DNA of 64,000 nucleotides, from positions 74,988-138,987 of IMG/VR virus record IMGVR_UViG_3300028805_000065; one strand, written 5' to 3'. This DNA comes from a virus. Its lineage: Duplodnaviria > Heunggongvirae > Uroviricota > Caudoviricetes. This document shows positions 31,137 through 50,242 of the stretch, one piece after another. The position numbers and the translations under genes are program-made. Under the pieces are notes generated by a model. That model was not told where the DNA came from, did no database searches, and saw nothing but the letters and a program-made list of their open reading frames with translations. Within the stretch, counting starts at the first letter, position 1. Each line of letters begins with the position of its first letter.

Positions 31137-31165
31137 TTGACACACCTAACAAGGTGTGGTAGGAT
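31137..31165 (+). promoter_or_regulatory. sigma-70-type promoter (TTGACA, 17 nt, TAGGAT; TGn extended) with spacer inverted repeat CACACCT/AGGTGTG
   Basis: Consensus -35 and a 17-nt spacer; first promoter of the rightward block, 40 nt upstream of the 31205 gene. Confidence 0.5.
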
Positions 31166-31204
31166 ACAGTTACATCAAACAAGCCACTTTATAGGAGGTA
31201 CGAA

Positions 31205-32044
31205 ATGCCTAAATATTCAAGGGACGAGCGTAAAGCTTATTACGCTGAAAATCCGTATACCGTAGTAAAGGGTAGCAATGGCTTTGCTGCTGTTGACCCT
31301 AAAACAGTTCGAAATGACCGTCTTAATTTTTCCGATGGTAACGAAAAAGTCGGACGTGTCGGATGTTTCAACCTTCCCGTAGCATATAGTTGTGTGCATG
31401 ACTGTGAGTGCTATCTGAATGGTGACTGTTATGCGTGTGGCGGTTGCTACAATTTCGCCGACAATCAAGCGATGTATTCAGAGAATTTTGCATACATTGT
31501 ATCCCATAGCATTGATGATTTTGTCAATACCGTAGTAGATGAGATCTATTACCGTGGATGGGGTCTCTTTAGATGGTTCACATGTGGGGATATCCTCAGT
31601 GTATCCATGTTTGACGGCATGGTTCAAATTGCGAAAAGATGTCCCGCCATCACTTTTTGGTTCTATACCAAAAAGTATAGGATGGTTAACGCATGGGTAT
31701 CCGCTCACGGCGTTGACGCTCTCCCCGACAACTTAACAATCATTTTCAGTCACTGGCGTAATAGGGATGGATCTTTTTATCCCATGCCTAACCCCTACAA
31801 TTTCCCGACATCCGAGTTTATCCCTGTCGGACATGAGGAGGAGGCTAAATTTGTGACACATGTTTGCCCTTGCAGTGACCCCGATGTTGTCAGCACTTGC
31901 GAAACCTGTGAACATCCCTGTTTCAAGCTCAAAAGGGGCGAGAGCATGGCACTGTTAGAGCATTCCACAAAAGCCACAAAAGAGCGTGATAAGGCACTCA
32001 AACAGGCTAAAAAGGCGCTCAAAAAAGCGAAAAAGAGCGCATGA
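31205..32044 (+). CDS. Cys-rich protein (279 aa) with a lysine-rich C-terminal tail
   Basis: Clusters 'CVHDCECYLNGDCYACGGCY' and 'CPCSDPDVVSTCETCEHPC'; KKALKKAKKSA tail; first early gene next to the origin-like region. Confidence 0.45.
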   Translation: MPKYSRDERKAYYAENPYTVVKGSNGFAAVDPKTVRNDRLNFSDGNEKVGRVGCFNLPVAYSCVHDCECYLNGDCYACGGCYNFADNQAMYSENFAYIVSHSIDDFVNTVVDEIYYRGWGLFRWFTCGDILSVSMFDGMVQIAKRCPAITFWFYTKKYRMVNAWVSAHGVDALPDNLTIIFSHWRNRDGSFYPMPNPYNFPTSEFIPVGHEEEAKFVTHVCPCSDPDVVSTCETCEHPCFKLKRGESMALLEHSTKATKERDKALKQAKKALKKAKKSA

Positions 32045-32201
32045 CATAACAGGCAATGCATGGTTGCATATAGGCTTATGGTCTATAGGTGGTTCGATTC
32101 CACCAACTGCCATTCTCTGTTAGGGGCTGACGCCTGACGGTGCGGTTTCTGACATGAAACGACACACTATAACTATACCCAAATAACAAGTGAGGTGCAA
32201 T

Positions 32202-32363
32202 ATGAGATGGTATACTATTTTAGATGACTTTCAAGACAATGGAGATGGTGCGGAAGAATGGGATGATGCCGTGCGTGGTGCAAACGCAATAGGCTCAAAC
32301 GTCATTATCGATGACATGAACCATGTATATTACAGAGTTGGCGATAATTGGGTAGAATTCTAA
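32202..32363 (+). CDS. small acidic protein (53 aa)
   Basis: ATG preceded by GAGGTG; not in the ORF track (below 60 aa). Confidence 0.3.
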   Translation: MRWYTILDDFQDNGDGAEEWDDAVRGANAIGSNVIIDDMNHVYYRVGDNWVEF

Positions 32364-32533
32364 AAGGGGTAAAATATGGCATACGTTGATTTTGTCAGAC
32401 ATGACGGAGAGAAGCAATTCTGCAAAAAGTGGTAAAAGAGAAAAGGGGTGATAGATTATCTAAGCCCCCCGGCGGAGGTCGAGAGGCTTAGGTGATACCA
32501 TCAACCACACAACAGGAAAGAGAGGAAAAGGAA

Positions 32534-32734
32534 ATGAGAACGGATTTTTATCAGCATGTTTATGATGTAGTGGAAGATGCACTGACGGAAGCGCTCATTA
32601 AATTGCAGACGGAAAATGGAATCACTGACGGCGGATGTGATCCGCTTGTATCTCATCAGTATGATGAGGCACTGGAAGACATGGCGGAAGCGGTCAGACT
32701 GGTTATCGAGAATCAGAGAGGTGGAAAGAGATGA
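32534..32734 (+). CDS. small acidic protein (66 aa)
   Basis: ATG with an AGAGGAAAAGG RBS; the track ORF starts at an upstream GTG. Confidence 0.35.
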   Translation: MRTDFYQHVYDVVEDALTEALIKLQTENGITDGGCDPLVSHQYDEALEDMAEAVRLVIENQRGGKR

Positions 32735-33054
32735 TGAGGAAAGCACTGATAGGAATCGGAATGACGGCACTTGTTGCCGTCTCAGGAATCAGAGTAGGTT
32801 CTGCGGAAGTAGAACCGAATCTGTACCCCACAGTGGGGTATGTGACGGAAGTAGACACGGAATCGGATACCGTCACATGGAACGACGGATGGAACGACTG
32901 GACGTTCTACGGAGTGGAAGACTGGATGGTTGGCGATGGAATCGCCGTCATCATGTCGGACGAGGGAACGGAATCTGTCAAGGATGACAGAATGGTGGAA
33001 GCTAGATACTGGAATCCCGATACGGTCACGTTGGGATACTGGGGGGAAAAATAA
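32731..33054 (+). CDS. small secreted protein (107 aa) with an N-terminal signal peptide
   Basis: 'MMRKALIGIGMTALVAVSGIRVGSAE' is signal-peptide-like; ATGA overlap with the upstream gene. Confidence 0.45.
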   Translation: MMRKALIGIGMTALVAVSGIRVGSAEVEPNLYPTVGYVTEVDTESDTVTWNDGWNDWTFYGVEDWMVGDGIAVIMSDEGTESVKDDRMVEARYWNPDTVTLGYWGEK

Positions 33055-33057
33055 TTG

Positions 33058-33086
33058 TTGACAAGCCACTGGAACGGTGGTAAGAT
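33058..33086 (+). promoter_or_regulatory. sigma-70-type promoter (TTGACA, 17 nt, TAAGAT) with spacer inverted repeat CCAC...GTGG
   Basis: Same architecture as the other early promoters; variant spacer sequence CCACTGGAACGGTGG shared with 33903. Confidence 0.45.
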
Positions 33087-33131
33087 AAAGAGGAATCAAA
33101 GGTAAGTGCTACCTAGAATGGAGGAATCAAA

Positions 33132-33326
33132 ATGACACTTAAGGAATTAAAGAGGGGCGATATGTTCACACTGAAAGATATTGAATTCCCTAGGGAATCG
33201 CAAGTTTACATCAGAGGGGAATACGACAGGGGAAGCAAGACGTACTCTTGCATCAAGTGGAATGATGTGAACAAAGAGATCTTCCGCAAGGGAACGACAA
33301 AAGTTTATACGGAATTCACGTTCTAA
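33132..33326 (+). CDS. hypothetical protein (64 aa)
   Basis: ORF with a GGAGGAA RBS. Confidence 0.4.
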   Translation: MTLKELKRGDMFTLKDIEFPRESQVYIRGEYDRGSKTYSCIKWNDVNKEIFRKGTTKVYTEFTF

Positions 33327-48569: not shown

Positions 48570-48591
48570 TTTTATATAGGGAGAATGAAAT

Positions 48592-48792
48592 ATGGCTGAA
48601 TATAAAGTGTATAAATACGGAATGCGCCTTAGAGGGTTTGCCCCAATGTGCCAGCCGATGAATGGTCTGGTGATGGCGAGTGGTAATGGTGATAAAAAAT
48701 ACTATAGTTATCTTTATTATAATAGGAAACTTACCGACAAGGAACTGAGAGACTACGAGTTGGATTTTATTGGCGAGGAAAAAAGAAAATGA
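48592..48792 (+). CDS. hypothetical protein (66 aa)
   Basis: ORF. Confidence 0.4.
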   Translation: MAEYKVYKYGMRLRGFAPMCQPMNGLVMASGNGDKKYYSYLYYNRKLTDKELRDYELDFIGEEKRK

Positions 48793-49394
48793 AACTTAGT
48801 AGAACCTATATCGGAATGGTTGAAAGGTATATCAACAGTCGTAGGCAAGGATGCTTATTGGAATGTGACGGAATTGCGATTGCCAATAACAGTATAAGCC
48901 TTATCTTATTTACACCAGTTCTTAATGACGATGGCAGTGGAATTTCTCCTATTGATTTTACTGGAATTAAAGTTACAGAATATCCCCACTTCAAGAACAG
49001 GATCTGGAAATACATCATTGAGCCTTACTGGGAAGACAGAACAAAATCTTATAAGCCAATGCCAATTACTTTGTTTTTGGAGGATATCAAGGCTGACGCA
49101 AAAAATGTCCACGATGAACTTGATATCCCGGTAAGAACAAAACTGTATGATGAGGCAGTAACGAATGGAAGATTTAAAACAGATGTTGCGTTAAAGTATG
49201 GCGGAGATGACGGAATATGGCTTAACCCGGAACTCCTGTATGATGTGGCAAAATTGATTACCTCTAAAGGAAAAGCGGTTGACATTTGGATTCCCAATAA
49301 CAAGAAACTGCCAGCCGTGGTTGTAGGGGAAAACAAATATGGAAGACACCTTGGTTTTGTATTGGGAACGATGAAAAATTATAAGGAAAACTGA
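48789..49394 (+). CDS. hypothetical protein (201 aa)
   Basis: ATGA-coupled ORF. Confidence 0.45.
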   Translation: MKLSRTYIGMVERYINSRRQGCLLECDGIAIANNSISLILFTPVLNDDGSGISPIDFTGIKVTEYPHFKNRIWKYIIEPYWEDRTKSYKPMPITLFLEDIKADAKNVHDELDIPVRTKLYDEAVTNGRFKTDVALKYGGDDGIWLNPELLYDVAKLITSKGKAVDIWIPNNKKLPAVVVGENKYGRHLGFVLGTMKNYKEN

Positions 49395-49419
49395 GAAGTG
49401 ATATATGGAGGTATTGCTT

Positions 49420-49584
49420 ATGGAATGGATCGACCAAATGAAAATGGCGATGGAAACGCTTATCGATGCATGTAACAAAAATATGTATTTGGATGATTGT
49501 AGTAAGTGTCCATTTGATGATTACTGTACGGTGCTGGAGGTACATGGAATGGGTATGCCAGAAGAATGGAAAATCGAAGATTGA
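49420..49584 (+). CDS. small Cys-containing protein (54 aa)
   Basis: ATG after a GGAGG RBS; frame verified. Confidence 0.3.
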   Translation: MEWIDQMKMAMETLIDACNKNMYLDDCSKCPFDDYCTVLEVHGMGMPEEWKIED

Positions 49585-49818
49585 CGTGCCGCTAGGTTCT
49601 CGGCGTGGGTGGTTCACGCAAGGGGGTTACTTCCCCCTAACGCTCTAAGCACGGTGGAAAGGATTTGCGCAGATCCTAATTTCCGAAAGCAGAATTGGGG
49701 GACAAGGAATAGTCCGTTAAATAGTATTGTATCAAAGCGCAAGATACGCCCATTCTGCGTGTAGTGGTGACGGCTAGAACCCGGAAACGTGATACACAAT
49801 ATTTAGAGGAGAATAAAT

Positions 49819-50055
49819 ATGTGGATTAAATGCAGTGAGAAGTTACCAAATGAAAACGGATTATATTTAATAGCCGAGAGATTTAATGGTCATGGTGGTA
49901 TATATAGAATTGCAAGATTCATGAGAAATCTTGGAGATGTTATTGGATTAGAGGATCACGATGGAGAGTGTGGCTTTTATGAGTCAGACCCGGAGTGGGG
50001 TTCATACAAAGTAGAACCAGAAGTATGGCAACCAATAGAGAAATATGACATATAA
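49819..50055 (+). CDS. DUF551-like protein (78 aa)
   Basis: 'WIKCSEKLP' and 'WQPIEKY' motifs related to the DUF551 paralogs. Confidence 0.45.
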   Translation: MWIKCSEKLPNENGLYLIAERFNGHGGIYRIARFMRNLGDVIGLEDHDGECGFYESDPEWGSYKVEPEVWQPIEKYDI

Positions 50056-50095
50056 AACACATCTCCTGGTTAGTGGAAAAATTTTAAAATAGTTG

Positions 50096-50124
50096 TTGAC
50101 AAAGCACTTGTTAAGTGGTATTCT
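50096..50124 (+). promoter_or_regulatory. early promoter TTGACA-N17-TATTCT
   Basis: Same family (AAGCACTTGTTAAGTGG spacer). Confidence 0.5.
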
Positions 50125-50213
50125 ATAAGAGGGTTGAGAGAGGAACAAAAAAAAGAACTGTTCCAAAACTTGACCAACAGTAACACTAACAAAACATTTG
50201 TTCGAAAGAGGGG

Positions 50214-50242
50214 TTGACTTCAATATGACGTAGCGTTATCAT
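50214..50242 (+). promoter_or_regulatory. sigma-70-type promoter TTGACT-N17-TATCAT upstream of the sigma/DUF262 gene
   Basis: Consensus hexamers with 17-nt spacing, no spacer palindrome; followed by the orphan leader AAACCCAAATAACAAAGAGGAG. Confidence 0.45.

Follow-up and report, generated by a model that had tools for sequence, protein, structure and literature searches.

The stretch analyzed here (the window) comprises 64,000 nucleotides, positions 74,988 to 138,987 of the IMG/VR record IMGVR_UViG_3300028805_000065, from an uncultured Caudoviricetes phage of ~139 kb, and our subject is an inverted repeat, or dyad, lodged in the spacer between the -35 and -10 elements of a series of its promoters. 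The window has two arms: leftward genes at 1-28.2 kb (GC 32-41%) and rightward genes at 31-64 kb (GC ~40-46%), with the sign of the GC skew flipping near 28 kb. The rightward block at 31-52 kb is made up of ~55 small open reading frames (ORFs), mostly acidic and with good Shine-Dalgarno sequences, and has the usual look of a phage early region; compared with 1-28000, the segment 31000-52000 has a GC content 4-10% higher and strong positive GC and AT skew. Few of its ORFs are recognized by Pfam: a GP88-family gene, a tyrosine-recombinase-family gene, a pyrimidine-dimer glycosylase, and DarA_C, DUF551 and GmrSD-like members; a SprT-like match is weak and below the cut-off. PDB and PHROG searches with the GP88-family and nine other early ORFs recovered no function.

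In the leftward arm, the 887-aa ORF at 17757-20420 (minus strand) has among its relatives a Bacillus phage protein and proteins of Enterocloster phages that bear the annotation 'RNA-dependent RNA polymerase', as well as ~2000 metagenomic homologues on 100-200-kb contigs; it is read as a probable YonO-type single-subunit RNA polymerase. Homologues of the 416-aa ORF at 26916-28166 (minus strand) carry the YonV_C domain. With a YonO-like polymerase, a YonV-like gene and a weak HU-like ORF (described below), the phage appears to be SPbeta-like in its gene content. A megablast search with 10 kb of the window against the deposited phage collection gave no match and no close relative, and the phage seems to belong to a large, essentially undescribed group.

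Thirteen plus-strand promoters had been predicted in the rightward block, and all of them are present at the coordinates then given, each with a TTGACA (11 sites) or TTGACT (2 sites) -35 element, an exact 17-nt spacer and a TAnnnT hexamer. A degenerate 14th family member lies at 31047, 90 bp upstream of the first promoter, and is kept in three relatives described below (L020, L023 and L025). The promoters, their dyads and the one hairpin that stands out among them are as follows:

31047..31075, plus strand: P0, TTGAAA-17-TATGAT without TG, a weaker upstream tandem promoter; degenerate spacer dyad CCCTTTAATCGGAGG at 31055-31069 (plus strand), likewise kept in L020, L025 and L023.
31137..31165, plus strand: P1, TTGACA-17-TAGGAT with TGG, preceding the GP88-family gene at 31205-32044; dyad CACACCT-aaca-AGGTGTG at 31141-31158, its center ~2.5 bp upstream of the common register (single-stranded DNA dG -7.1).
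33058..33086, plus strand: TTGACA-17-TAAGAT; dyad CCACTGgaaCGGTGG at 33066-33080.
33903..33931, plus strand: TTGACA-17-TAAGAT; dyad CCACTGgaaCGGTGG at 33911-33925, extendable to 9-bp arms.
36230..36258, plus strand: TTGACA-17-TATCAT; perfect dyad CCACCTaatAGGTGG at 36238-36252; conserved block after the -10 at 36260-36275.
36801..36829, plus strand: TTGACA-17-TATCAT; dyad CCACTTaatAGGTGG at 36809-36823; conserved block at 36831-36846.
38234..38262, plus strand: TTGACA-17-TATCAT; dyad CTACCTaatAGGTGG at 38242-38256 (21 bp when extended); conserved block at 38264-38279.
39887..39915, plus strand: TTGACA-17-TATCAT; degenerate dyad CTACCGaccAGGTGG at 39895-39909.
41840-41866: the only strong terminator-like hairpin of the plus strand, upstream of the promoter at 42030.
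42030..42058, plus strand: TTGACA-17-TATCAT; degenerate dyad CAACTTgatAGGTGG at 42038-42052.
43128..43156, plus strand: TTGACT-17-TATACT; dyad ACACCTgatAGGTGG at 43136-43150.
44126..44154, plus strand: TTGACA-17-TATCAT; dyad CTACCTgttAGGTGG at 44134-44148; conserved block at 44156-44171.
46178..46206, plus strand: TTGACA-17-TATTCT; dyad ACACCTaatAAGTGG at 46186-46200; precedes the tyrosine-recombinase-like ORF.
50096..50124, plus strand: TTGACA-17-TATTCT; dyad GCACTTgttAAGTGG at 50104-50118, with one pair changed from C-G to T-A.
50214..50242, plus strand: promoter-like, TTGACT-17-TATCAT, without TGn and without a dyad; outside the operator family.

These promoters far exceed chance: 12 of the 13 sites (31137-50096) match TTGACW-N14-TGN-TANNNT, against 0.16 expected (100 shuffles, largest shuffle value 2). 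The same 12 have a TGn extended -10, which constitutes the last three bases of the spacer; hence the pattern as originally written, with TGn following the 17-nt spacer, matches nothing (0 matches), although the spacer length itself is correct. The -10 hexamer agrees with the consensus at 4-5 of six positions, being usually TATCAT and never TATAAT. The formula given for it in the original prediction breaks down at 43128 (TATACT), and the site at 50214 drops out of the family for want of both the TGn and the palindrome. A scan for TTGACA-like plus TAnnnT hexamers returned the listed sites as the only perfect or near-perfect plus-strand promoters at 31-51 kb. They were also re-found by an unbiased repeat search as the direct-repeat families D1, D3 and D4, whose lengths of 39-60 nt imply a shared block spanning roughly -45 to +20.

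Upstream of the -35 element this block displays a conserved AAAA around -45 to -42 followed by RTG, which would fit the proximal subsite of the UP element (AAAAAARNR); the combination of an extended -10 TG with an upstream A-tract is typical of strong Gram-positive promoters. Each promoter begins 1-45 bp past a stop codon and stands 30-190 nt ahead of a Shine-Dalgarno sequence and start codon, a placement that would agree with host-holoenzyme transcription beginning 6-8 nt past the -10. Given the consensus -35, the 17-bp spacer, the TG, the A-tract and the location after a stop codon and before a leader, Shine-Dalgarno sequence and ATG, they are very probably early promoters of the host sigma-A type. 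Downstream of the -10 element the conserved block is ATAAGAGAAGTMARGRA. It had been described as a conserved transcribed leader: the conservation is strict (0-1 mismatch) at 36230, 36801, 38234 and 44126 and loose at approximately four more sites, and the first 6-7 nt belong to the discriminator rather than to the transcript. Rfam found only tRNAs in the window and nothing in the promoter leaders.

Two further kinds of signal accompany these promoters. A translation-initiation context, AAACCCAATAA(C/A)(A/G)AGAGGAG-N5-8-ATG, occurs in ~10 copies before many early genes (for example at 33404-33427, 34539-34562, 36923-36946, 38396-38422, 40427-40453, 42102-42137 and 46226-46261), and as it partly resembles the dyad it gives rise to false operator matches. 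On the minus strand, a perfect consensus promoter, TTGACA-18-TATAAT at 50361-50390, converges on the plus-strand promoters at 50214 and 50096, lies just upstream of the GmrSD-like gene at 50445-52154, and may produce an antisense RNA or act as a local switch.

All 12 TG-bearing promoters carry the spacer dyad, with the consensus CCACYTnnTARGTGG at about -27 to -13, centered near -20. The palindrome noticed originally is real: CACCTAATAGGTGG, with up to two mismatches, is confined to these promoters (9 strand-hits versus 0.37 expected), and the earlier description of its variants (31137; 33058/33903) is correct. Its exact form occurs only once (36239), the other sites differing from it by 1-5 bases, such that the single consensus holds as a family rather than as one sequence. 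At the 11 sites of common register, the 15-mer occupies spacer positions 3-17 with 4-6 of its 6 pairs complementary; at P1 the dyad sits ~2.5 bp further upstream, yet the TGG before the -10 is retained. The dyad is also often longer than had been noted, reaching 9+3+9 = 21 bp in the form ATACCACCTAATAGGTGGTAT, which extends from the last A of the -35 to the TAT of the -10. As read from the sequence, the centers of CAC and GTG are 10 bp, or one helical turn, apart, the spacing classically expected where a symmetric dimer, or two dimers paired, would bind. In the weight-matrix scan that the original prediction had proposed, run with a symmetrized matrix, 11 promoter sites score 16.8-24.1 bits. 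A potential third half-site upstream, AGGTG before the -35, was rejected as a part of the operator: this position is G-rich in only some of the promoters and seems better explained as the RNR end of the UP subsite.

The right arm of the dyad overlaps the extended -10, raising the question of whether the left arm is anything beyond its symmetric echo. A first pattern scan of IMG/VR yielded single matches, biased by the search pattern itself. The control was a scan for TTGACA-N13-GTGGTAT-N-AT, in which the -35, the spacing and the right arm are fixed and the left arm is free; it returned 139 promoters. CAC stands at the left-arm position in 4 of these and is absent from 135, as against its presence in 38 of the 38 distinct sites of the window and its relatives; likewise, four or more of six complementary pairs are seen in 11/139 controls versus 11/11 common-register sites of the window. 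Since the left arm is rare in the controls, the register shifts at P1, and one relative (L025) keeps the dyad without the TG, the dyad is an element in its own right rather than a consequence of the extended -10.

The dyad is conserved in relatives. Protein-guided look-ups recovered the syntenic contigs L020 (GP88 88% identical), L025 (YonV 94%), L023 (YonV 79%) and L015 (GP88 61%), along with eight JGI/ENA contigs (L031-L038) that have the recombinase-like gene at 79-91% identity. L031-L038 supply 27 further promoters with CAC-N7-GTG in the same register and L020, L023 and L025 add others; together the relatives contribute more than 30 promoters of the same build, each with CAC-N7-GTG in that register. 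Pooling gave 44 sites, equivalent to 38 distinct 15-mers from nine phage genomes, in which the fourth pair is C-G in 38/38 and the third A-T in 35/38, while the outermost pair and both inner ones are variable. L020, L023 and L025 all keep a dyad at the first promoter: the ACACCT..AGGTGT of the window is replaced in L023 by ATACCT..GGGTAT (C-G to T-A), and L025 retains CACC-gaaaa-GGTG but has lost the TG before the -10. The dyad is specific to this phage clade. Scans of IMG/VR with GP88, the 224-aa ORF and the recombinase-like ORF retrieved only distant, non-syntenic loci without the promoters, and the distant YonV relatives L026, L028, L029 and L030 either have no dyad promoters or are on contigs that end before the early region; the GP88 homologues L017 and L019 (54-61% identity) belong to other phage types and were set aside as uninformative.

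Beyond this clade, IMG/VR contigs with TTGACA-17 promoters and perfect palindromes of the CCACC-N5-GGTGG type were seen in L041 (1346), L158 (10494), L105 (minus strand; plus-strand coordinate 53) and L099 (minus strand; plus-strand coordinate 9127), on account of which the dyad type may extend to a wider phage group. By eye, L041, L105 and L158 encode look-alikes of the window genes at 13.1-15.8 kb, and no candidate for a shared regulator gene was found next to the dyad promoters of L041, L099, L105 and L158. L009 (1063-4340 of IMGVR_UViG_3300027675_000013), from an unrelated phage that is rich in AT and carries ERF, HTH_19 and methylase genes, has four promoters with an analogous layout built on another half-site, AATAAG-TTGACA-A-CTTAT-AAA-ATAAG-..-TATAMT; hence, spacer-embedded dyads common to several early promoters may be a recurrent design.

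We propose, at a probability of roughly 0.55, that the dyad is a shared operator which would let one symmetric DNA-binding protein block RNA polymerase at the early promoters. On this proposal, the host sigma-A RNA polymerase would transcribe the region from 31 to at least 52 kb (~55 small genes) from no fewer than 12 near-consensus promoters; a symmetric protein, as a dimer or tetramer, would bind the spacer dyad with its CAC-N7-GTG core; and, once bound between the -35 and -10 elements, it would exclude the polymerase and turn all the dyad promoters off together. Such a coordinated off-switch could be a lytic early shut-off or a means of silencing in a carrier or lysogenic state. The one-repressor operator of the original prediction thus stays the best-supported explanation, indirectly, through the rarity of the left arm elsewhere, the conservation, the shift at P1 and the absence of strand bias (see below), although no protein was found to go with it. 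Its further claim, that one protein controls the whole early region, is too strong, with 50214 lacking a site.

Several observations weigh against this proposal. On the DNA side, the register of the operator is almost fixed in every promoter, as an intrinsic promoter element would show. The best non-promoter match in the weight-matrix scan reaches 14.4 bits, which is within the shuffle range (maximum 16.9), so there are no free-standing operator copies. A GCACG-N5-CGTGC variant is present at the same spacer position in L015 and in the closer relative L032, alongside standard sites in one genome, which a single repressor specificity would not predict. Relatives at 48-61% identity have sigma-A-like first promoters without the window-type dyad. 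The inner pairs show a modest excess of complementary combinations, 50 of 76 versus 41 expected (P=0.008, uncorrected for relatedness), which one repressor specificity would not predict either. On the protein side, where the searches covered the 64-kb window of the ~139-kb genome, the 49 early ORFs gave no helix-turn-helix (HTH) match at Pfam E<=0.05, in agreement with the precomputed Pfam marks and contrary to the abundance of HTH candidates originally claimed; across both the HTH and ribbon-helix-helix (RHH) classes the only match at that threshold was RepB-RCR_reg at E=0.046. The recombinase-like ORF, when aligned to IntI4, retains R..HxxR..H..Y, and was rejected as a homologue of MrpR, the SPbeta repressor, by a BLASTP comparison with YopR (E=0.81). 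No prophage copy was found in the reference genomes and a role in lysogeny is unsupported.

The near-fixed register (11/12 window sites and 27/27 from the relatives), together with a right arm that doubles as the extended -10, leads to the first alternative: the dyad might belong to the promoter itself or be what a positive factor recognizes, with no off-switch. In such a case the left arm could tune promoter strength, open-complex formation or competitiveness, or be contacted by an injected or early phage factor. The T4 early promoters, for instance, have an extended conservation that may favor them via an injected or early phage factor. The behavior of the segment from -45 to +20 as one conserved cassette, and the lack of both a repressor candidate and free-standing copies, would also be expected under it. 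However, an element that sets strength needs no symmetry, yet the site is symmetric over up to 21 bp; 135 of the 139 strong promoters of the same build from other phages do without the left arm; with near-consensus promoter elements, activation seems unnecessary; and the register shifts at P1 and in L025. We consider this alternative unlikely.

The dyad could instead act as a structure: a hairpin or cruciform extruded from supercoiled DNA, as in phage N4, or an RNA hairpin in read-through or antisense transcripts that serves in processing, stability or termination. Its geometry, a 5-9-bp stem with a 3-nt loop, is N4-like, and the best-folding sites reach -7.1, -5.3 and -5.2 kcal/mol (z-scores -2.7 to -3.7). 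Compensatory changes are present, namely C-G to T-A (50096 and L023), T-A to G-C (33058/33903) and two pairs in GCACG..CGTGC, and the above-mentioned excess of complementary inner pairs points the same way, as does a terminator-like hairpin followed by a T-run on the minus strand at 46178 and 31137. Predicted stability of the single-stranded hairpin nevertheless spans -7.1 to -0.5 kcal/mol across the window sites, and 46178, 42030 and 50096, at -0.5 to -2.4 kcal/mol, do no better than shuffled sequences and have essentially no stable hairpin. In 20 aligned sites, 78% of the cells pair, versus 29-62% with slid partners; covariation exceeds that of shuffles only weakly (14-16 of 500, which is not to be taken as a probability), which suggests that sequence is conserved rather than pairing alone, and the CAC/GTG sequence is indeed fixed rather than free to covary. 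Neither strand is favored, with 16 G.T intermediates against 12 A.C among the pooled sites. Further, the plus strand has no T-run after the hairpin, the site lies upstream of the expected start and thus outside the promoter's own transcript, and no T7/N4-type polymerase was seen in the window, where the phage polymerase is YonO-like. An intrinsic terminator test called none of the dyads on the plus strand; among the promoter repeats its only call was one centered on the -35 at 46178, on the minus strand. We regard a role as structure as improbable and favor the dyad as a probable duplex site for a symmetric protein, given the absence of strand bias, the unstable hairpins, the invariant core, the independence of the left arm and the register shift at P1.

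The repeat centered on the -35 is a second inverted repeat, formed by AGGTG before and CACCT after this element at minus-strand positions 46172-46192 and 31128-31147. On that strand a T-run, the complement of the UP A-tract, comes next, and the two together resemble a terminator hairpin for leftward transcription; the scan picked up the copy at 46178, and the one at 31137 was recognized by eye.

As for the protein that would bind the operator, the absence of an HTH match among the 49 early ORFs leaves room for a late product of the phage or a protein of the host. Three ORFs of the window were considered as candidates:

46252..47247, plus strand: candidate 1 (speculative), a 331-aa ORF of the tyrosine-recombinase family, directly behind the promoter at 46178.
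11161..11496, minus strand: candidate 2 (speculative), a divergent HU/IHF-like ORF in a non-early block.
36065..36205, plus strand: candidate 3 (very weak), an acidic 46-aa ORF with, by eye, a beta-alpha-alpha, RHH-like pattern.

The first is the only early ORF with a recognized DNA-binding fold (Pfam PF00589, E=4e-13; PHROG integrase, E=1e-28), and it is kept at 79-91% in eight relatives, all of which have dyad promoters. YopR/MrpR is not among the five chains that it matches at E<=1, and, with its catalytic residues kept in the IntI4 alignment, it may simply be an active recombinase. The second matches Pfam Bac_DNA_binding at E=0.0039, below the curated cut-off, and the third is the source of the RepB-RCR_reg match (E=0.046).

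A host protein is the subject of another alternative, in which the dyad is an operator that ties early expression to host physiology. The want of a phage candidate among the early ORFs would suit it, and the arguments for a duplex, symmetric site apply to it equally. There is also precedent, in that Spo0A boxes, sites for a host factor, are reported in the early promoters of phi29 and Nf (PMC2731898). The relatives at 48-61% identity that lack the dyad speak against it. Moreover, to our knowledge the dyad is unlike the consensuses of the Firmicute regulators LexA, CcpA, CodY, Rex, Fur/PerR, CtsR, HrcA, Spo0A and DnaA. We give a host regulator little credence.

The dyad matrix also gives weak matches that concentrate 42-46 bp away from the main dyads (6 versus 0.2 expected from random anchors). 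Two downstream ones, at +42 and +46 (31184 and 39941), were rejected as operator copies as they coincide with the conserved ribosome-binding context AACCCAATAAC..GAGGAG, which also occurs at internal genes. After their removal four auxiliary sites are left:

31098..31112: dyad-like CCACTGacaCGGTAG, lying 43 bp past the P0 dyad and 44 bp short of the P1 dyad.
36853-36867: weak dyad at the promoter 36801.
42081-42095: perfect palindrome CAACCTaaaAGGTTG at the promoter 42030, at +43 bp.
46143-46157: weak dyad at the promoter 46178, at -43 bp.

The score of the 31098 site is within the range of shuffled sequences and its spacing is what makes it notable: the first promoter region thereby has dyad-like sites at 31055, 31098 and 31142, ~43-44 bp apart. 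The clustering is suggestive only, since the thresholds were chosen after seeing the data; if real, the spacing fits cooperative binding on one face of the helix. It also invites a bolder version of the operator proposal, which we hold to be distinctly doubtful: a non-canonical repressor family missed by the domain libraries would bind the spacer operator and the auxiliary sites ~43 bp (four turns) away, wrapping or looping the promoters. One possibility for such a protein, by analogy, would be a repressor derived from a tyrosine recombinase, MrpR-like in action, independently evolved and catalytically intact. Were this true, it would represent a new type of global early-gene switch across the widespread, uncultured gut phages with YonO-type polymerases.

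If the dyad is an operator as we propose, one protein would switch at least 12 very strong promoters and ~55 early genes in widespread, uncultured, large gut phages, a group that would pair early transcription by the host polymerase with a YonO-type polymerase of its own. It would offer a concrete handle on the early-to-late switch, including a 15-bp bait for DNA-affinity capture, and a natural series of Gram-positive promoters, strong, graded and repressible, whose operator sits where it is most effective.

Other features of the window lie apart from the promoters. Between the divergent arms there is a ~3-kb gap (28167-31136) without a convincing ORF, which has a 17-bp tandem repeat, AGTCGGGGGCTTCCGCC x5.9, at 30764-30863, 15-bp repeats at 29687-29774 and several AAAGGCTT-type motifs; the contigs L024, L026, L028 and L030 stop inside the equivalent region, and the gap may be a genome terminus, a packaging site or an origin. 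tRNA genes are found in both arms, at 12929-13079 and 16205-16475 (minus strand) and at 55432-56522 (plus strand). ARAGORN reports a tRNA with a four-base anticodon (ggcg) at 55920-55992, without confirmation by Rfam, and Rfam reports a 106-nt tRNA-like match at 56227-56332 and another match at 13008-13079, neither of them listed by ARAGORN. Paralogous small proteins encoded at 56838-59084 and 62175-62603 share (I/V)(I/V)RCKDCKH...C...(F/Y)CS.AERRE, which looks like a repeated zinc-binding module.

Comparison with known systems places the dyad promoters among several precedents, none of which they match in full. The early promoters of N4 likewise share a small hairpin (5-7-bp stem, 3-nt loop) that recurs ahead of the start; in contrast to them, the window promoters have full sigma-A elements, hairpins that are unstable at several sites and no strand bias. 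MerR-family regulators also use a dyad operator centered in the spacer, but their spacers are over-long (19-20 bp) and the regulator is needed for activation, whereas here the spacer is 17 bp throughout. The position itself has a close parallel in P22 Arc at Pant, a symmetric operator in the -35/-10 spacer of a strong promoter, placed so as to give direct exclusion of RNA polymerase, and Lanzer and Bujard are said to have reported synthetic lacO-in-spacer promoters in 1988. Those cases concern single promoters, whereas at least 12 natural promoters share the site here, and an RHH protein is merely hinted at (E=0.046). TF1 of SPO1, an HU-family phage protein, has preferred binding sites at early promoters, is an inhibitor of early transcription and requires hydroxymethyluracil DNA; the window has a divergent HU-like ORF, assigned below the Pfam cut-off, but TF1 has no short GC-rich dyad consensus.

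Regulation from a reiterated short site by one phage protein acting at many promoters or units is seen in bacteriophage P1, with C1 and its more than 14 operators, and in mycobacteriophage L5, with gp71 and its stoperators; in both, one lysogeny repressor of a temperate phage acts at many dispersed sites. Their sites, unlike those of the window, are asymmetric and variably placed, many of those in L5 being within transcribed regions. Reiterated-operator regulons are hence already established in SPbeta, P1 and L5, and our finding overturns nothing; what is notable here is the strict in-spacer placement, together with the lack of a recognizable repressor gene in the part of the genome covered.

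The closest parallel is SPbeta, whose master repressor MrpR (YopR) adopts a recombinase fold and recognizes the 15-bp SPBRE at ~10 early promoters (PMC10516654). Both are large phages (~134 kb versus ~139 kb here) with a YonO-type polymerase and a YonV-type gene; both have one 15-bp, partly palindromic element reiterated at sigma-A early promoters (~10 there, at least 12 here); and the early block of the window includes a tyrosine-recombinase-family ORF. The SPBRE copies that we read from NC_001884, CAAATACAAAWAATATGTATA, are in the -35/-10 spacer at yonP, as are the window dyads, and upstream or downstream at other promoters. The differences are equally clear: SPBRE is unrelated in sequence to CCACYTnnTARGTGG and varies in position, whereas the window site is always in the spacer; the window recombinase-like ORF retains catalytic residues reportedly missing from MrpR; and no evidence of lysogeny was found for the window phage. 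With neither a homologue of MrpR nor the SPBRE sequence found, the window system is not a homologue of SPBRE/MrpR, but plausibly works like it, by analogy.

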